A DNA stretch of 50,135 nucleotides, taken from positions 1 through 50,135 of the forward strand of contig JBGTNQ010000002.1 of the NCBI GenBank assembly GCA_041742965.1. Reading direction: 5' to 3'. Shown here in pieces: positions 7,721-24,477 of this stretch. The notes under the pieces were generated by a model. That model worked only from the letters and a program-made list of their open reading frames with translations, ran no database searches and had not been told where the DNA came from. This stretch comes from Minisyncoccia bacterium. Its GTDB lineage: Bacteria > Patescibacteriota > Minisyncoccia > Phycocordibacterales > Zambryskibacteraceae. How positions within the stretch are numbered: the first letter of the stretch is position 1; each line of letters begins with the position of its first letter. Made by a program: the position numbers and the translations under genes.

Positions 7721-8476
7721 TTAAATGCCCGTCATATGATCGTTTCTTTCTACCATTGGTAGAGGGGGTCTTCGATTATAGAGAGGGGGGAGAAATATAA
7801 AATGATTGTAATTTTGTATTTCTCAAAACATGTAGTTAAAACAAAACCTGTTTTGTGATTCATTTCATAAAACAGGATGAAGTAAGTAAAGTCACAACTT
7901 GTCCATGCGGGGCCAGTTGTGACTGTGCGGTTTTTAAATTTCCTAATAGGAAATTTAAGAGCGTATGGTGGATGCCTAGACTCTAAAAGGCGATGAAGGA
8001 CGTAGCATGGCTGCGATAAGCTTCGGGGAGGTGCCTAGCAACCTTTGATCCGGAGATTTCCGAATGGGGAAACCCATACCGTTTTTACGGTATGTGCAGG
8101 ACTAGACGCCTGCACGCGCACCCAGGGAAGTAAAACATTTCATTACCTGGAGGAAAAGAAACTAAAAAGAATTTCCCAAGTAGCGGCGAGCGAAAAGGAA
8201 GAAGCCCAAACCCAACACCATTTTCACTTGATCATTCTATGGTCTGGTGGAAGTGTTGTTGGGGGTTGTAAGGCAATAACTTCGCTTTTTTAAAGCGAAA
8301 GGAGTTACAAATCACTTCATTAATTGAATATGCTGGAAAGCATAACCCAAGAGGGTAATAGTCCCGTAAATGAAAATGAAGTGACTCTTTTGTTATTGTT
8401 CTTGAGTACCTCGAGACACGAATACCTCGGGGGAATCTGCCGGAACTAACCGGTAAGGCTAAATACTTTTAGAGAT

Positions 8477-8513
<37 letters not shown>

Positions 8514-9944
8514 CAGCCCGGTGAGGGCGGTGAAATAGACCTGAAACCATATGTTTACAAGGAGTCGGAGCGGACGCTTGCGTTCCGCCACGGCGTGCCT
8601 ATTGAAGAATGAGCCAACGAGTTTTAGCATGCTGCTCGGCTAAGCCCGAAAGGGTGGAGTCATAGGGAAACCGAGTGTGAATAGCGCGAAATTATGTAGC
8701 ATGCTAAAGACCCGAAGCCAAGTGAGCTTGTCATGAGCAGGGTGAACGCACCCGAAAGGGTGCGGGAGGCCCGAACCGGTGAGCCGTGCAATACTCTCGG
8801 ATGACTTGTGATAAGAAGTGAAAAGCTAATCGAACTTGGTAATAGCTGGTTCTCTCCGAAAGAGCTTTTGGGTTCGCGTCGTATGTTCCCGGGAGGGGTA
8901 GAGCACTGGAAGGTCTGGACAGGGCGAAAGCTCGCTAGACCTATCAAACTCCGAATACTCCCGGCTCAAAGTACGGCAGTTAGACTGCGGGGGCTAAGCT
9001 CCGTCGGTCAAAAGGGAAACAGCCCAGATCTCAATTTAAGGTCCCTAAATTTACACTAAGTGCGCTTAAGGTGGTGAAGTTTCTCAGACACTGAGGAGGT
9101 TGGCTTAGAAGCAGCCATCCTTTAAAGAAAGCGTAACAGCTCACTCAGTAAGAGATTTCGCGCCGCAGATAATCGGGGCTAAGTGTAGTACCGAAACTGA
9201 GGATTTGTTTTGTCTTCGGACAAGATAAGTGGTAGGAGAGTATTCGCATCTGCTGTGAAGGCAAAGGGGTGACCCATGCTGGAGCGTTGCGAAGAAAGAA
9301 TGTTGGCACAAGTAACCGCAATTAGAGTGAGAATCTCTAACGCCGAAAGAACAAGGTTTCCTTGGCGATGTAGATCAGCCAAGGGTTAGTCGGGCCTAAG
9401 GAGATGGCGAAAGCCGCATCCGATGGACACATGGTTAATATTCCATGACTTTTTGTTTGTGCGATGAGAGGACGGGGTTTAGTATGTCTTGCGCATTATT
9501 GGATTTGCGTTCGTGCCGTAAGGATGTTTCCCAGGAAAATCCGGGAAGCTCTCTTTAATGAGGAATCCAAGCGGAGCGAAGACTTTGGGGTTCGCCCTAG
9601 GGAATTTGACAAAGCAAGCTCTCAAGAAAAATCTCTAAGCATAACAAGCAAGAAACCGTACCGCAAACCGAAACAGGTGTTCAGCTCGAGTAGAGTAAGG
9701 CGAACGAGTGAGAAATCCCCAAGGAACTCGGCAAAAAAGCAGCCGTAACTTCGGAATAAGGCTTGCCCTGCCAGCAATGGTTGGGGCCGCAGCTAAAGTA
9801 TCTCTGGCAACTGTTTATCAAAAACACAGCTCCCTGCGAACTCGTAAGAGGATGTATAGGGGGTGACACCTGACCAATGCCAGAAGGTCAAATATCGGGG
9901 GTGAATAGGTCTTCGGATTTATTTGCTGATTGATATAAGCCCTG

Positions 9945-9979
<35 letters not shown>

Positions 9980-10182
9980 TGCGCGAACAATTTTATTGTT
10001 CGCGCAAGGACTGGGACTGTTATAGAAAAAGATAAACTAATTAAACACATAATCATTACATTTCCAGTTACCTATTCTGTCGAAATACAGAAATAGTCCA
10101 TCGTGATCAACGAGAGACCAACGTCACGGACCCAAACTTGCAAAAGTGGGTTAAGAGAGAGTCCTTCTGAGAGGAATAGAAG
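9980..10182 (+). other. 203-nt intervening sequence in 23S domain IV, between GGTCCTAAGGT and AGCGAAATTCC (by my alignment after E. coli U1931); class undetermined
   Basis: Both flanks of the conserved 23S sequence are contiguous in E. coli. The insert starts after a T and ends in G. It has several internal hairpins and no ORF. Confidence 0.65.
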
Positions 10183-10849
10183 AGCGAAATTCCTTGTCGG
10201 GTAAGTTCCGACGCGCACGAATGGTGTAATGACTGGAGAACTGTCTCGGGGATCAGCTCGGTGAAAATACAATACCGGTGAAGATGCCGGTTACCTGCAG
10301 TTAGACGAAAAGACCCCAGGAGCTTTACTGCAACTTGATATTGAGAATACGTTTTACATGCGTAGCATAGTGGTGAGACTTTGAAGCGGGCTTTCGGGTA
10401 CCGTGGAGTCGTTAGTGAAATAGCCATCTTGTGTAATGTATTTTCTAACCCCGTGGGCAAAAACCACGAGAGACAGTATCTGGCGGGCAGTTTTAGTGGG
10501 GCGCTATCCTCCTAAAAAGTAACGGAGGAGTTTATTAAGGTCAGCTAGGCGCGAATGGAAACCGTGCCGATAGTGTAATGGCATAAGCTGGCTTAACTGT
10601 GAGACGTACATGTCAAACAGATGCGAAAGCAGAACATAGTGAACCGACGGTCCGTGTTAGACGCGGCCGGAGATTATCGGATAAAAGCTACCCTGGGGAT
10701 AACAGGCTAGTTCCGCCTAAGCGTCCACAGCGACGGCGGAGTTCGGCACCTCGATGTCGGCTCAACTTATCCTGGGGGTGAAGAAGCTCCCAAGGGTATG
10801 GCTGTTCGCCATTTAAAAAGTTACGCGAGCTGGGTTCAGACCGTGAAGT

Positions 10850-10905
10850 AGTTGATAGTATTTAGTCGATAGTTGTTAGTAATTTGCTAACAACTAAAAA
10901 TTAAT
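10850..10905. repeat. Heptad-periodic array (AGTTGAT AGTATTT AGTCGAT AGTTGTT AGTAATT TGCTAAC AACTAAA AATTAAT) in the intron 5' extension
   Basis: 7-nt periodicity read directly. Confidence 0.6.
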
Positions 10906-11069
10906 CACTGCCCTCGACTATTCCACAGTCTGAATCCTCAGAGGAAAAAGAAAACTGTTATTGAAAATATTTTTGTTTATGAAATTGAAAGAAAAAGAAA
11001 CCAACCAACACGGCGGCTGTTCATAGTAATATGTACAGACAAACTGACTTATATCGGTAAATTCCAATC

Positions 11070-11111
11070 AGCTTAGGGCTGTTAGCTTGTAGCTTTCAGC
11101 TTAAAGACTGA
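11070..11111. repeat. AGCTNNN heptad array (AGCTTAG GGCTGTT AGCTTGT AGCTTTC AGCTTAA AGACTGA) inside the intron
   Basis: Read directly. It belongs to the family at 15894, 18141, 34304 and 34518. Confidence 0.7.
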
Positions 11112-11741
11112 GGAGGATACCGAGGGAAGGCGGCAGCTCGCGATTACGCGACTGCACTTGGATTTTCTAAAACAGATTACTGTTAAGAAAATCTCGGCGC
11201 CCGTAGAGACTAAATGTCAGTCTTCCTGAAAGGGAAGAAGTTATAGTCCATTCCTTGTAGTAATACAAGACAAAGAAGCGTGAGACAGGTTGGTCTCCTA
11301 TCTACTGCAGGCGTTGAATTTTGAGGAGATTTGACAATAGTACGAGAGGACCTTGTTGAACGAACCTCTGGTGTGAGAGCTGTTCCTGCCAAGGGCAATG
11401 CTCTGTAGCTAAGTTCGGAATGGATAACCTCTGAAAGCATCTAAGAGGGAAGCCAACTCCAAGATTAGAATTCGTTTGAGGCCCGTAGGAGATGACTACG
11501 TTGATAGGCTCTAGGTGTAAGCGTAGTAATGCGTTAAGCCGAGGAGTACTAATTCGCCGATTTCTATTAGGAAATTTGAAAATCGCGATTACTTCATCCT
11601 GTTTTATGGAATGAATCTCGTAGTGAATTTTGACATTGTGATTTCTGCACCCTTATTGTTGGGTGCTATGTCAAAATCTACTACCAGATGAATTTGACTA
11701 CATGTTGTTTTTGGTTCAAAGATTGCAAAGTGGTTTCATGC

Positions 11742-11814
11742 GCGCCGGTAGCTCAGTTGGAAGAGCAGGTGAATCTTAATCACTTGGTCGGAGGTTCGAG
11801 TCCTCCCCGGCGCA
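11742..11814 (+). tRNA. tRNA-Lys (anticodon CTT)
   Basis: Manual cloverleaf: gcgccgg/ccggcgc acceptor, gctc/gagc D stem, ggtga-atCTTaa-tcact, ggagg-ttcgagt-cctcc. CCA is not encoded. Confidence 0.9.
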
Positions 11815-11822
11815 TGCACCAT

Positions 11823-11896
11823 CGGGCTATAGCTCAGTCTGGTAGAGCGTCGTCTCTCTGAGACGAATGTCGCAGGTTCAAATCCTGCTAGCCCTG
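11823..11896 (+). tRNA. tRNA-like gene, nominal anticodon TCT (Arg), with non-canonical features
   Basis: Cloverleaf: cgggcta/tagccct acceptor with a C1xT72 mismatch, T8, gctc/gagc, tcgtc-tcTCTga-gacga, gcagg-ttcaaat-cctgc. Position 33 is C and position 37 is G. Confidence 0.6.
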
Positions 11897-12048
11897 TTTC
11901 CACTTTTCCGCCACTCAGACGGACGGCAACCCAGATGGTTGCCACCACTTTGCAGTCTTTGAGTTTATTAGCGACATAGAGCGAGAGGAGCGAACACTCT
12001 TTGACCGGGGTTTGCCCCGGGGTTAATACCGCTTTTATTCGATATAAA

Positions 12049-12413
12049 GTTCTGGTGATTTGTCGCAGAGGTCACACCCGTTCTCCCGCCATCGAGGCTT
12101 TGGCGGACTGCGATTTGCAGCTAATCACTTCGTTCTTGGGCAAATCGGGAGCATTCCGACCTGTCCCGTAGGAAATTTTTGAAGATTGAAAGTTTAGTTC
12201 TGGTGCTTCATCGCAGAGGTCACACCCGTTCTCATTCCGAACACGGAAGTTAAGCTCTGTTGAGGCGATGATACTCTTGTGGGGGAAAGTAGCTAGGCGC
12301 CAGAACTAAGAGTTCAATCAAATTTCTCAAAAATTTTCCTTCGGGGACACGGAAGTTAAGCTCTGTTGAGGCGATGATACTCTTGTGGGGGAAAGTAGCT
12401 AGTCGCCAGAACT
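12049..12413 (+). other. Outer, split 5S rRNA gene in three segments (12049-12085, 12153-12159, 12347-12413), interrupted in loop C by a 67-nt insert and a 187-nt insert that contains the intact 5S
   Basis: The concatenated segments are colinear with the intact copy and differ at 4 positions. All 4 differences are structure-preserving. The outer copy has its own flanking stem, 12036-12045/12417-12426. Confidence 0.6.
12197..12307 (+). rRNA. rrf: 5S rRNA (intact inner copy)
   Basis: gttctggtgc...ccgttctcattccgaacacggaagttaagc...gcgccagaac. Helices I, II and III can be drawn by hand. Confidence 0.9.
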
Positions 12414-12424
12414 TTGCATCGAAT

Positions 12425-12457
12425 AAAAAAAGCTCTCGTCGAAACGAGAGTTTTTTG
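12425..12457 (+). terminator. Rho-independent terminator of the 23S-5S operon
   Basis: aaaaaaagctctcg-tcgaaa-cgagagtttttt. Confidence 0.85.
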
Positions 12458-12492
12458 TATGTGTTATAATTTGATAACTAATTTGTGGTTAG

Positions 12493-13920
12493 ATGGATCT
12501 CGTAGGGCTTAATAAACTAAAATTTCACTACAAGATGGATTGGGCAACAAAAAGACAACTTCAATACATAGGATTCATCTTTCTCTTTGTTTTGTTTTTT
12601 TTCGTCATTCCATTTTTCATTTTTATATACAAAGCCCCCACTTGCTTTGATGGAATAAAGAATGGAAAAGAGACCGGTATTGACTGTGGTGGCTCTTGTC
12701 GGCTTCTTTGTAGCGCAGAGATTCCTGAACCAATATCTCGTTGGGACCCACGGGTGTTTAGGGTGACACCGGGAGTTTATAGCGTCCTGTCTTACTTCGA
12801 GAATCCAAATGTTGCGGCGGAAGTTTACTCCGCCCCATATAGTTTTGAGTTATATGACAAGGACGGAATATTGGTCGCAGAAAGAAAGGGGGAGACCTTT
12901 ATTCCTCGTGGACAAATTTTCGCTATTTTTGAATCAAATATTCGGACAGGGGAACGGGTGCCAACCAGAGCCATATTCAGGTTTACAGATAGCCTGCAAT
13001 GGATTAGAAATACAGAAGAAATCCCTTCTGTGACTATTGTAAACAGCCCTCTAATTTCTGAAGATACATCTCCTCGTTTGGAAGCTACAGTTTCAAATAA
13101 CAATTTAGACCAAGTTAGGAACATTGATCTTACCGCCATTATTTTTGATGGAGCAGGAAATGCCATAGGCGCTTCCCGAACATTTCTCGCTAGTTTAGAA
13201 AGGGGTCAGAATGAGAGGGTAGTTTTCACATGGCCTCTGCCTTTTGAGACCAAAGCAGAGGTGTGTGAATCTCCTGTTGATGTGATGGTTGCCATAGATC
13301 GTTCTGGAAGTATGGCCGCACTTGGCGCGAACCCTCCTCAACCACTTACAGATGTTAAAAACGCAGCCATATATTTTGTAAATCAACTTGATGAAAATGA
13401 TAGAGTCGGAATGGTTAGTTTTGCCACAAGCGCCGATACTTCATCCGAATCTCTGCTTTCTTCTAATACAGAATTGGTCAAAGGAGCCATAGACAAAATC
13501 GCCATTGGAACCCAAGGTATTCAACAAACAAATATTACCGATGCTTTGTCAAAGTCGCTTGAAGAACTATCTTCTCCCAGAAAGAGGGAAGGAGTTCCGT
13601 CTGTTACGGTTCTTTTAACTGATGGAGTGGCCACTGTTCCGCAAAAACCGGGTGAACCAGATTATCCAGAATCGTCAGCACTCTCTCTAGGCCAATTAAT
13701 CAAAGATCGCGGTATTCGGCTTTTCACTATTGGTTTAGGCAAAGACCTAAACCAGGGTTTTTTGACGAGCCTAGCCTCATCTCCAGATGATTTTTATCTT
13801 GCCCCAACCACCAAGGAGTTGAATAATATATATACTCAAATAGCGACAAAAATATGCCAGAAAAGGCCAGCCGTTATAGAAATAATTCCACGTATTTTTC
13901 CTAGACCAATTACTCTCTAA
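12493..13920 (+). CDS. Membrane-anchored von Willebrand factor type A (vWA) domain protein
   Basis: 475 aa with an N-terminal TM helix. The MIDAS-type motif is VMVAIDRSGSM, and VGMVSFATSA and VLLTDGVAT are also present. Confidence 0.75.
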   Translation: MDLVGLNKLKFHYKMDWATKRQLQYIGFIFLFVLFFFVIPFFIFIYKAPTCFDGIKNGKETGIDCGGSCRLLCSAEIPEPISRWDPRVFRVTPGVYSVLSYFENPNVAAEVYSAPYSFELYDKDGILVAERKGETFIPRGQIFAIFESNIRTGERVPTRAIFRFTDSLQWIRNTEEIPSVTIVNSPLISEDTSPRLEATVSNNNLDQVRNIDLTAIIFDGAGNAIGASRTFLASLERGQNERVVFTWPLPFETKAEVCESPVDVMVAIDRSGSMAALGANPPQPLTDVKNAAIYFVNQLDENDRVGMVSFATSADTSSESLLSSNTELVKGAIDKIAIGTQGIQQTNITDALSKSLEELSSPRKREGVPSVTVLLTDGVATVPQKPGEPDYPESSALSLGQLIKDRGIRLFTIGLGKDLNQGFLTSLASSPDDFYLAPTTKELNNIYTQIATKICQKRPAVIEIIPRIFPRPITL

Positions 13921-13941
13921 TCTTTCTGGTAGAATAGTGTT

Positions 13942-15123
13942 GTGACGGAAATTATTTCACAAGTTTTGGATAAGGTTGGGGTACGAAGATCATCAATTTT
14001 CGATATTGATTGGACTCTTTTCTTTTCCGCAGTATTGATATCTTTGGCTGGCCTTATAACGATGAACTCTTTCTCTTCTGTCCAGGAAAGTTCTTTAAGT
14101 AATTATTTTTTTGAAAGACAGAGTATTTGGTTGACTGTATCTATTATATTTTTTTTCATTGCAAGCGTGATTGATTGGCGTTTTTTGCGTAGAACCGGAG
14201 TGGTAGTTTCCTTATTTGTAGGGTCTTGTATTGTCCTTTTATTACTGTTTCTTTTGGGAAGTGTGTTTAAAGGCGCACAAAGTTGGTTTGATTTTGGCGG
14301 ATTTGCTTTTCAGCCGTCAGATCCGATTAAGTTGGTGCTGATTATTCTTTTGGCAAAATATTTTAGTCGCAGACACATAGAAATTGCTAATATAAAACAC
14401 ATTATTCTTTCTGGTTTTTATGCTTTCATTCTTTTTATACTCGTTTTTCTTCAACCAGATTTCGGCTCCGCCATTATTCTGTTTGCTGTTTGGTTCGGTA
14501 TGGTTTTAGTTTCTGGTATCTCAAAAAAACACCTATTGGCGGTTATATTGGTCGGTGTGATTTCTTTCGGTGCTCTTTGGACCTTTGTTTTTGAGCCATA
14601 TCAAAAACAAAGGATTGTTAATTTTATTCATCCGTTAGCAGACGTTCGTGGCTCGGGATATAATGCTTATCAGTCAACAATTGCTGTGGGTTCAGGTCAG
14701 ATTTTGGGGAAAGGCGTAGGGTACGGGACGCAAAGTAAATTACGGTTTTTACCAGAATATGAAACGGATTTTATTTTCGCAGCATTTGCAGAAGAGTGGG
14801 GTTTTGTTGGGGCTAGTGTAATACTACTTCTTTATGGTGTTCTTATATGGAGGATACTCGCTAACGCCATGCTTGGTGCAAGTAATTTTGAAACTCTGTT
14901 TGGTCTTGGATTAGCCATTTTATTTATGGTGCATTTTATTATCCATGTTGGAATGAATATCGGCCTGCTTCCCGTAACAGGAACAACGGTTCCTTTTATG
15001 AGTTATGGTGGAAGTCATTTGCTAACAGAATTTTTAGGATTGGGGATTCTTATGGGAATGAGAAAATATAATCGCTCTGCCCACAAAGAAGATGCTAAAA
15101 ATGAATTTTTGGTGACGCATTAG
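13942..15123 (+). CDS. SEDS-family peptidoglycan glycosyltransferase (FtsW/RodA/SpoVE)
   Basis: 393 aa, polytopic. Motifs QPDFGSAIILF and GYGTQSKLRFLPEYETDFIFAAFAEEWGFVG. GTG start. Confidence 0.85.
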   Translation: MTEIISQVLDKVGVRRSSIFDIDWTLFFSAVLISLAGLITMNSFSSVQESSLSNYFFERQSIWLTVSIIFFFIASVIDWRFLRRTGVVVSLFVGSCIVLLLLFLLGSVFKGAQSWFDFGGFAFQPSDPIKLVLIILLAKYFSRRHIEIANIKHIILSGFYAFILFILVFLQPDFGSAIILFAVWFGMVLVSGISKKHLLAVILVGVISFGALWTFVFEPYQKQRIVNFIHPLADVRGSGYNAYQSTIAVGSGQILGKGVGYGTQSKLRFLPEYETDFIFAAFAEEWGFVGASVILLLYGVLIWRILANAMLGASNFETLFGLGLAILFMVHFIIHVGMNIGLLPVTGTTVPFMSYGGSHLLTEFLGLGILMGMRKYNRSAHKEDAKNEFLVTH

Positions 15124-16265
15124 TACAAGGCAGTAGTGTTTTTTACCATATTTTTTATATTAAATTCTTTCACCACTCGGTCATTTAGAGATTCACCCAG
15201 AGACTTTCTTAGTTCCGGTTTCACAATAAGTTCTTCAATCGTTCGGGCTAGTTTCTCTGTATTTTCTGGGCCAACTAGGAGCCCTGACTCACCGTTAGTG
15301 ATTGTTTCGGGTATACCACCAACCCAACTAGCTATAACCGGCAGAGAAGCAATTCCGGCTTCTAATGGGGCGTAGGGGAAAGCCTCCGTTCGTGATGTTA
15401 GGGTGAATATATCAAATGCTTTTAAATATTTTCTAGCATCGGCTTTAAATCCTACAAAAACCACCCGGCTATCTATTTCTAATTCATTGGCAAGGGATTT
15501 TAGATTTTCCTCTTCCTCCCCACCTCCCACAATTACAAGTGCGATGTTTGCATATTTTGGCATTAGGACAGCGAAGGCTTTCAACAAATAATCTAAACCC
15601 TTGTTCTTGTGAAGTTCTGATATTGTGCCAATCCACACTCTTTCATGAACTTGGGGGGCAAGGGCGTTTCTAGATTCGCTTTGCCCATTTAATTCAAATG
15701 ACTCTATTCCATTGTGTATGGTTTTTATCTTTTTCTTTATAAAAGGGAGCACCTTTATTTGACCCGCAGTCCTCTCTGACACCGCAATAGTGGAGTGAGA
15801 AAGGATTACGGTTATCCAGTGCAGTAGGTAGATTATTATTTTTTGAAAATTAGACCTCTCTTCATTAAAAGCCCATCCGTGACCAGTAAATATAGCTTTT
15901 AGCTTAGAGCTTTTAGCTGTTAGCTTTGTTAGGTTTAAAACACGGACAGCAAAAGCGCCTAGACCACCAATCTTTGAGCTATTGAGATGGACTATATTTG
16001 GACGCTCCTTTCTGAGGATATTTATAATCTCAAAAAAAGCCCAAATATCCTTTAATACGCTTATATTACGACTTAAAGATTTAATGTGTATGGTGCGGAT
16101 ACCCTCATCTTCGAGTTTGTTTTTTAGAGTTTCTCCTTCGCCGTGTGCTACTACTACATCAAATTTATCTTTGGGTATATTTGTCGCTAAATCAAATACA
16201 TACCTCTGGGCCCCTCCGAAGTTGCCCTTTGTAATTAAGTAGAGAATCTTTTTTTTGTCAGACAT
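15120..16265 (-). CDS. GT4-family glycosyltransferase
   Basis: 381 aa. The C-terminal Glycos_transf_1 signature is TSRTEAFPYAPLEAGIASLPVIASWVGGIPE. It carries an in-frame heptad-repeat insertion (LTAKSSKLKA). Confidence 0.8.
   Translation of the reverse strand: MSDKKKILYLITKGNFGGAQRYVFDLATNIPKDKFDVVVAHGEGETLKNKLEDEGIRTIHIKSLSRNISVLKDIWAFFEIINILRKERPNIVHLNSSKIGGLGAFAVRVLNLTKLTAKSSKLKAIFTGHGWAFNEERSNFQKIIIYLLHWITVILSHSTIAVSERTAGQIKVLPFIKKKIKTIHNGIESFELNGQSESRNALAPQVHERVWIGTISELHKNKGLDYLLKAFAVLMPKYANIALVIVGGGEEEENLKSLANELEIDSRVVFVGFKADARKYLKAFDIFTLTSRTEAFPYAPLEAGIASLPVIASWVGGIPETITNGESGLLVGPENTEKLARTIEELIVKPELRKSLGESLNDRVVKEFNIKNMVKNTTALY
15894..15928. repeat. AGCTNNN heptad array x5 (AGCTTTT AGCTTAG AGCTTTT AGCTGTT AGCTTTG) inside the GT4 CDS
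   Basis: Read directly. Its reverse complement matches 34517-34550 at 32 of 34 nt by hand alignment. Confidence 0.8.
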
Positions 16266-21711: not shown

Positions 21712-23270
<1,559 letters not shown>

Positions 23271-23478
23271 GTGAAAAACCGTCCCGAGATTTTTTCGAGG
23301 GGCTTAGTGTGTCGATATTGTGTGCCTCAATTGAGCACATGATGGATTTGATAGTAATCCTAAAATCTATCTGACATCTGGAAAGACAGATGCAGTTCCA
23401 CTCGCGCTTTGCTTAAGCAATTTTGTAAAGTATTGAGGTGGGGTGAAGGGAACGGGACAAAATAAAGAATAGTAGAAG

Positions 23479-24329: not shown

Positions 24330-24403
24330 GGGCGTATAGCTCAGGTGGTTAGAGCGCGTCACTGATAATGACGAGGTCCCAAGTTCAACTCTTGGTACGC
24401 CCA
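24330..24403 (+). tRNA. tRNA-Ile (anticodon GAT)
   Basis: gggcgta/tacgccc acceptor, gctc/gagc, cgtca-ctGATaa-tgacg, ccaag-ttcaact-cttgg. CCA is not encoded. Confidence 0.9.
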
Positions 24404-24477
24404 CAATAGACGGCATGTCGAGAGTGAATTCTAAGCGGTTTTCTTTTTTAGAGGTTTTTTGCGTATAATGAGCTTAT

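Follow-up and report, generated by a model that had tools for sequence, protein, structure and literature searches.

A complete 5S rRNA gene nested within a split 5S rRNA gene in the loop C region, a recurrent arrangement in Patescibacteria

In the 50,135-nt stretch of DNA analysed here (the window), from a Minisyncoccia bacterium, one of the ultra-small Patescibacteria (CPR), an intact 5S rRNA gene lies inside a second 5S rRNA gene, whose sequence is split in loop C. The same layout is present in at least 15 independent Patescibacteria contigs, and the nest is real, recurrent and apparently undescribed. The explanation that we favour, to which we give moderate confidence, is that a resident 5S gene was split in loop C by a module without open reading frames, that the inner 5S is the working gene and the outer one a relic, and that such modules are gained, exchanged and lost by recombination.

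The features of the nest are collected in Table 1. Read in order, the three outer pieces give a 111-nt 5S sequence that is colinear with the intact inner copy; direct reading and a script comparison agree on this, and bear out the segment coordinates of an earlier, sequence-only reading of this DNA. The 5′ piece comprises the 5′ strand of helix I, loop A, the 5′ strands of helices II and III and the start of loop C, and the 3′ piece comprises the 3′ strands of helices III and II, helices IV/V with loop E, and the 3′ strand of helix I. The first insert (67 nt) is rich in hairpins, CCGCC.../...GGCGG and CGAUUUGC.../...GCAAAUCG, and two hairpins are also present in the consensus fold. It is followed by a short island, the place of which is taken by CATTCCGA or CTTTCCGA in 13 nest loci. 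The second insert (187 nt, 12160–12346) consists of the inner 5S atop an imperfect stem, which closes on the host rRNA and whose strands form a duplex of −24.3 kcal/mol (RNAduplex). The 5′ strand of this stem has a GC-rich base, CCCG, an A/T-rich middle and a proximal native-type leader, GATTGAAAGTTTA; the right junction, at the end of the 3′ strand, YGGGG followed by AC, is kept in 12 metagenome loci. The whole 401-nt nest region folds at −150 kcal/mol (z = −6.1 relative to shuffles), and the fold contains the outer leader/trailer stem, the outer helix I and the stem of the inner copy. The coordinates of the flanking stem (TTTATTCGAT and ATCGAATAAA) were corrected to those in the table. On the + strand, the terminator that follows the outer 3′ piece is the sole terminator-like site in 11500–12700, and no internal promoter-like or terminator-like sites were found within the nest.

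Table 1 Features of the nested 5S locus and of the transcription unit that contains it
Feature	Positions	Strand	Evidence or remark
23S rRNA gene, expanded, 3632 nt, same transcription unit upstream	7942..11573	+	Rfam RF02541, 2292.8 bits
tRNA-Lys(CTT) and tRNA-Arg(TCT), between 23S and nest	11742..11897	+	ARAGORN; Rfam tRNA
Outer leader/trailer stem, 5′ strand TTTATTCGAT	12034..12043	+	Pairs with 12418–12427 in MFE fold
Outer 5S 5′ piece, positions 1–37	12049..12085	+	Identical to L133 5S 1–37; nhmmer match to 5S profile 1–37
Insert 1, loop C between positions 37 and 38	12086..12152	+	Same-site homologues in L128, L042, L123, L097
Island ATTCCGA, outer 5S positions 38–44, 3′ part of loop C	12153..12159	+	Direct reading
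Long stem carrying inner 5S, 5′ strand	12160..12196	+	Duplex with 12308–12346
Inner 5S rRNA gene, intact, presumed working copy	12197..12307	+	Rfam RF00001, 74.7 bits, full length
Long stem, 3′ strand: native-type trailer AAGAGTTCAATC ... CGGGG	12308..12346	+	Duplex with 12160–12196
Outer 5S 3′ piece, positions 45–111	12347..12413	+	Identical to L133 5S 45–111; nhmmer match
Outer leader/trailer stem, 3′ strand ATCGAATAAA	12418..12427	+	Pairs with 12034–12043
Intrinsic terminator of 23S-tRNA-5S unit	12427..12456	+	13-bp stem, then T run

The two copies are identical at 107 of 111 positions, which confirms the four differences counted previously. These lie (inner to outer) at positions 10 (C to A), 13 (C to T), 14 (A to G) and 101 (G to T). 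Positions 10 and 101 pair with each other in helix I, as C-G within the inner 5S and as A-U within the outer one, while positions 13 and 14 sit in loop A of the Rfam alignment, so that the wobble pairs ascribed to helix II in the sequence-only reading are not canonical 5S pairs. The Rfam model RF00001 calls the inner copy alone in the window, over model positions 1–120 and with a gathering score of 38; the interrupted outer copy receives no call. The joined outer sequence, which the earlier reading had singled out for such a search, obtains 76.3 bits on the same model, scored as the 5S that stands uninterrupted in the related locus L133.

In the region 11950–12500 no Rfam family besides 5S was detected, even at E values up to 10, and covariance models of group I and group II introns gave no match in the nest, by a method that found a group I intron in the 23S gene of L123. 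There is no target-site duplication at the flanks CCGA and ACAC, though the stem strands are inverted repeats, and no further copy of the insert or stem sequences was found in the window, nor outside 5S nests in the other loci. A transposable element or MITE was thus rejected, for want of a target-site duplication and of dispersed copies. Chance is excluded by the 107/111 identity together with the recurrence of the layout in independent assemblies.

To compare the locus with its relatives, we used the VWA-domain gene 3′ of the 5S, which follows the 5S in nearly all nest loci. Its homologues were fetched blind to the form of the 5S and provide an unbiased sample; they are labelled Patescibacteria or Parcubacteria by their sources. 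The closest relative found (L133–L136) has a neighbouring VWA protein that is 79% identical, and one simple 5S gene. The joined outer copy of the window is identical to the sole, uninterrupted 5S of L133 at 111 of 111 positions, and the leader and trailer are similar, the simple gene of L133 being flanked by a leader like the outer leader of the window; the spacers and the terminator around the 5S have diverged almost beyond alignment between the two loci. Given this identity and the shared leader/trailer context, the outer copy is the resident 5S gene, in agreement with the earlier proposal. The simple 5S genes of L137 (66% VWA identity) and L139 (61%) have native leaders and trailers, gattgaaaatttaG ... 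CTAAGCGTTCAATC, that match the proximal stem of the inner copy. The inner copy and its stem are, on this comparison, a whole pre-5S unit brought in by the inserted module, and the possibility raised before, of a 5S-containing module inserted into a 5S gene, fits the data. Leader/trailer style was also considered as a general divider of inner from outer copies and dropped, as it does not separate them.

The match to L133 also bears on the meaning of the four differences, which had been taken as a sign of selection on the outer fold. As the outer copy is unchanged relative to the working 5S of a relative, the differences belong to the allele of the inner copy. The compensatory pair described at positions 10 and 101 is real, with C-G facing A-U in helix I, but it is a difference between two working 5S alleles and no evidence of selection after the split.

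A genome scan, a more specific scan of metagenomes and the profile searches that followed returned the layout in contigs from different studies, those listed with it being L001, L042, L048, L094, L097, L106, L111, L121, L123, L124 and L126–L129. They include MAGs labelled Paceibacterota, Parcubacteria GW2011_GWA2_49_9 and Falkowbacteria, as well as JGI and ENA metagenome contigs. The common order is an outer 5′ piece, usually a hairpin insert between positions 36 and 37 or 37 and 38, the island CAUUCCGA, the long stem and the outer 3′ piece. The stem keeps its GC-rich base (GCCCCG... / ...YGGGG, then AC), and the intact 5S that it carries has a leader and trailer of native type. This intact inner 5S is present in every nest, and the interrupted copy is therefore never the sole 5S. 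Over 14 loci, duplexes of cognate stem strands have a mean of −26.7 kcal/mol, compared with −14.4 kcal/mol for non-cognate strands; since the stem sequences vary between loci and yet remain complementary, the stem is a selected RNA helix.

The searches define how these sets are to be read. The search patterns needed GAAGTTAAGC in both copies, and the aligned outer copies are biased to recognisable ones. A loose genome scan for two GAAGTTAAGC motifs 71–101 nt apart gave mainly unrelated repeats until it was screened with BLAST and nhmmer. Automatic spliced alignment produced spurious jumps in heavily interrupted loci, and for that reason the outer cores were curated by hand and degenerate ones omitted.

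The nests of L001, L125 and L131, from three separate assemblies, are identical across the whole printed region, which excludes an assembly artefact as a general explanation. For the window contig itself, a chimera in which reads of two 5S variants were mis-joined would be consistent with the fact that no second independent assembly of this contig occurs in the collections searched: exact-protein look-ups of the window VWA and FtsW proteins gave no match, and the VWA protein is found once in the collection, on the window's own contig. We nevertheless consider such a mis-join very improbable, because the junctions hold unique, structured linker sequence, the nest is located mid-way along a 50-kb contig, and many independent assemblies share the architecture with homologous linkers, the identical trio among them.

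Some of the other loci show further rearrangements. In L111 (3845–3932 and 4179–4252) and L126 (26–86, 344–372 and 400–435), hairpin elements of the outer type lie in the other half and in reverse orientation, and these hairpin-rich elements seem to move at the DNA level. In L094 (oriented 629–868), the block of 5′ piece, insert 1 and leader is present twice in exact tandem ahead of the full 5S, which may be an assembly effect, the contig coverage being only 1.4x. In L120 (oriented 1–266) three 5S 3′ pieces follow one another and a 41-nt junction is repeated, which looks like a further round of nesting.

A recent local duplication of the resident 5S, by replication slippage or template switching, would need no transferable module and would leave the outer pieces as pseudogene relics. 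The small number of differences between the copies (4/111 positions) is what such an event would give, and partial 5S duplications do occur in unrelated bacteria: a Vicinamibacterales MAG (L077, 5172–5374) has a 5′ piece and a full 5S copy, and a Chitinophagaceae MAG (L091, 4–209) has a full copy, a terminator and a 3′ piece. Truncated 5S copies are also closely spaced in Paenibacillus, Bacillus, Nocardioides and Chryseobacterium (L015, L070, L016, L050, L081, L082); none of these partial duplications outside the CPR is nested. Against a local origin, insert 1, the base of the stem and the insertion point between positions 44 and 45 are homologous in hosts whose VWA proteins are 29–48% identical, the leader and trailer of the inner copy differ in type from those of the outer copy and match other lineages, and the nested order with unique linkers is not explained by a simple duplication. 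The homologous cassettes in distant hosts already contradict this explanation, which we regard as improbable.

The distribution of the nest is sporadic. Seven of the related loci in the unbiased sample have a 5S, which is simple in six (VWA identities of 79, 66, 61, 49, 46 and 45%) and present as a remnant only, a full copy and a 3′ piece, in L142 (57%); L141 (59%) has no 5S upstream of the VWA gene. In the hosts of all other nests, the VWA protein shares no more than 48% identity with that of the window. The inserted parts follow a different pattern. Insert 1 of the window shares 83–89% identity with its counterpart at that site in L128, although the host proteins are only 38% identical, and the window stem is 77–87% identical to that of L111 (host 39%); among nest loci in general, insert 1 has diverged to 56–83% identity. 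The cassettes of L124 and L042 are 97.6% identical over 206 nt, compared with 67–69% for the coding flanks and 91–96% for 23S, whereas L127 is closer to L042 in 23S (96–100%) and its cassette is only 90.7% identical. In addition, working genes have C-G or G-C as pair 31-49, but the outer copy of L128 has C·C and that of L001 has G·G, and several outer-copy mismatches are mosaics of two working allele types.

Distant hosts thus resemble each other more in the non-5S parts of the nest than in the flanking genes, and these data together suggest that homologous recombination through the conserved 5S halves accounts for gain, exchange and loss of the nest. Alternatively, the history may be one of vertical inheritance with many losses, since direct repeats ease deletion. 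Candidate intermediates of loss are L080 and L142 (full copy and 3′ piece), L129, L042, L106 and L127. A viral vector for the module was sought and none was found.

The state of the outer copies is less easily read, and it is here that the strongest rival to our explanation arises. We counted 9 broken cross-half pairs in outer copies and 0 in inner ones. By hand count, at least 27 extra hairpin inserts are present in 15 outer copies and none in 19 working copies. Whole domains are missing in the outer copies of L042, L106, L127 and L129, and a whole half in L080 and L142. The claim of the sequence-only reading that the outer fold has been selected rather than decaying is therefore not sustained across loci, where outer copies gain inserts, lose segments and become remnants. 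On the other hand, point changes are few. Pairing in helices I–V amounts to 99.7% in the inner copies (11 loci) and 96.6% in the outer copies (11 alignable ones, chosen for recognisability), and each set has 15 covarying pairs with double-sided changes, the observed values being reached by 0 of 500 shuffles. The two halves of the outer copies, 5′ and 3′, agree with each other at 96.4%, more closely than with the inner halves (90.3% and 84.7%), and the divergence among outer copies (24.4 differences) is no larger than that among inner copies (25.5). At the 49 positions where working 5S genes do not vary, the alignable outer copies show 1 deviation in approximately 525 cells. Across nests the 8-nt island hardly changes, next to a far more diverged insert 1, and its one variant, CUUUCCGA (L042 and L124), matches loop C of the inner copies of the same loci.

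These observations would fit an outer copy that is still functional. The stem and insert 1 would then be excised without ligation, and the outer halves would serve as a fragmented 5S or, in a second version, as a cis-acting scaffold, in which the 5S-shaped outer RNA brings in uL18/uL5 or directs how the inner copy is processed. A functional outer copy would mean two 5S species from one transcript, and fragmented 23S rRNAs are used by other bacteria (PMC11270868). We take this as a serious rival, though an unlikely one. The sampled closer relatives live without the nest, those having a 5S carrying a plain one, and the losses of domains and halves, together with the confinement of every broken pair to outer copies, speak against it. 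Extra inserts are found in outer copies and never in working ones, which implies that continuity matters for a working 5S. The insertion site, in the region of loop C and the top of helix III, is close to positions 42–43, which Stepanov and Fox report to be blocked by uL5 (PMC7812874). Finally, matching halves and covariation would be expected anyway if the outer copies worked until recently.

For the same reason, we considered and rejected the idea that the 37 double compensatory differences seen on comparing inner with outer copies prove selection on the outer copy: the outer copies worked before they were split, and several of the mismatches are mosaics of working alleles. The low level of point decay, the pairing and the island fit equally well with young or recombinationally refreshed relics and with selection that still acts on the outer RNA. 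We regard the outer gene as most likely a relic, and outer copies may retain some residual function, given the near absence of point changes at conserved positions. A bolder possibility, that the cleaved outer pieces assemble as a fragmented 5S in ribosomes beside the contiguous inner 5S while a protein-free module spreads via the 5S halves, seems doubtful to us.

In the explanation that we favour, with the outer gene as a relic, the module would consist of two parts: the hairpin insert after position 37 and, after the 7-nt island AUUCCGA, a stem of approximately 28–30 bp tipped by a complete 5S with its own native-type leader/trailer helix. A single transcript would cover the 23S, the tRNAs and the nest, and end at the terminator. 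An RNase III-type enzyme would presumably free the inner 5S from its long double-stranded stem, and trimming would then give the mature 5S; RNase III classically acts on a helix of this length, both when bacterial rRNA matures and in the intervening sequences of 23S. The outer halves would remain paired through helices I–III, close the structure and presumably be degraded, and at the DNA level the conserved 5S halves would act as homology arms for recombination of the module.

We found no description of a 5S-in-5S nest in the literature searched, as the sequence-only reading had anticipated; its further statement that no intervening sequences are known in bacterial 5S overlooked the 5S expansion segments already described (PMC7812874). 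Tsurumaki et al. [quoted passage not shown] Nested 5S genes are not mentioned by Tsurumaki et al. (2022) (PMC9297842). By the definition of CPR rRNA insertions in the 2024 survey (at least 100 bp relative to the E. coli gene), insert 2 counts as one and insert 1 is too short.

The nest is a kind of rRNA intervening or insertion sequence, set apart by its location in 5S and by its complete replacement gene. Like the intervening sequences in 23S of Salmonella, Leptospira, Coxiella and others, and like the CPR inserts in 16S and 23S, it lacks open reading frames, forms a stem and sits in a surface loop of the rRNA; the patchy distribution, ascribed in those cases to horizontal transfer, and the expected removal by RNase III cleavage of the stem are also shared (PMC11270868). 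Two hallmarks of intervening sequences, a long stem that closes on the host rRNA and a sporadic distribution, are seen here, and organisms with the nest also carry many 16S and 23S inserts. In contrast to intervening sequences, the nest lies in a 5S gene and the tip of its stem is a complete copy of the interrupted gene, and, unlike in the 23S genes that bear them, the interrupted copy shows signs of dispensability.

A second likeness is with the 5S expansion segments catalogued, together with 5S remnants in other phyla, by Stepanov and Fox (2021), which are helical inserts rooted in loop C and helix III (PMC7812874). These authors also reported 5S-like remnants with inserts beside a normal 5S and suggested recombination between them (PMC7812874). 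However, the expansion segments are 13–109 nt long, contain no 5S and come from Clostridia-related orders, Alteromonadales and Halobacteriales rather than CPR, the remnants lie downstream of the normal gene and not around it, and internally duplicated sequences were discarded from that survey (PMC7812874).

A comparison with mobile elements is also instructive, in that the nest module repairs its own damage by supplying a replacement of its target. Integrative elements that insert in tRNA and tmRNA genes carry a copy of the displaced gene end, and the target stays functional. Such elements have an integrase gene and renew no more than the 3′ end of the target; the nest module, by contrast, contains no open reading frame, lacks a target-site duplication and supplies an entire gene together with its processing stem.

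The genomic surroundings of the nest have features of their own. The order of genes is 23S, tRNA-Lys, tRNA-Arg, nest, approximately 9 kb of other genes (VWA protein, FtsW, glycosyltransferases, SecD and SecF), 16S and tRNA-Ile. The rRNA genes are therefore unlinked and reordered, with the 23S-tRNA-Lys-tRNA-Arg-5S unit first and the 16S (21713–23272) and tRNA-Ile (24330–24404) downstream on the same strand, beyond a block of cell-envelope and secretion genes. The probable start of the VWA gene is the ATG at 12535 and not 12493, and the order 5S, VWA, FtsW/RodA, family 4 glycosyltransferase (window 12535–16265) is kept in L133–L146, from 79% down to approximately 35% VWA identity. The GC content varies along the window between approximately 32 and 49%. 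The 23S gene, of 3632 nt compared with a model of 2925 positions, has a 203-nt insert (9980–10182) after E. coli position ~1931 and a 76-nt insert (8257–8332) near position 304, and the 16S gene has an insert of 70–82 nt near E. coli position 187 (window ~21882–21951). These inserts are of another kind than the outer-copy hairpins, and a check of the 16S and 23S genes of the window for those hairpins found none. The '515F' site of the 16S gene (~22265–22287) reads GTGCCAGCAGCAGCGGTAA, in which an A replaces the usual C, and amplification with the standard primer would consequently be weakened. Related loci contain the group I intron in the 23S of L123 (951–1176), LAGLIDADG open reading frames at the 3′ region of 23S and a GIY-YIG open reading frame between the VWA and FtsW genes (L135 1–70, L137 1–66, L141 2930–3190), which indicates that homing-type elements are active around these rRNA loci.

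Insertions in rRNA genes are a hallmark of the CPR, yet the 5S gene had been reported to be free of them, probably because covariance models see the intact inner copy alone and surveys dropped internal duplications. The nest also carries a warning for annotation, in that half-5S relics and 5S-like, hairpin-rich spacers in Patescibacteria are easily overlooked or misread. As a compact natural insertion that offsets the harm it does by bringing a substitute for the broken gene, it gives a handle on how non-intron rRNA inserts that encode no protein spread, and it allows a test of whether 5S rRNA works in pieces. If the split outer copy does enter ribosomes, each transcript would provide two kinds of 5S rRNA in organisms that have a single rRNA operon.
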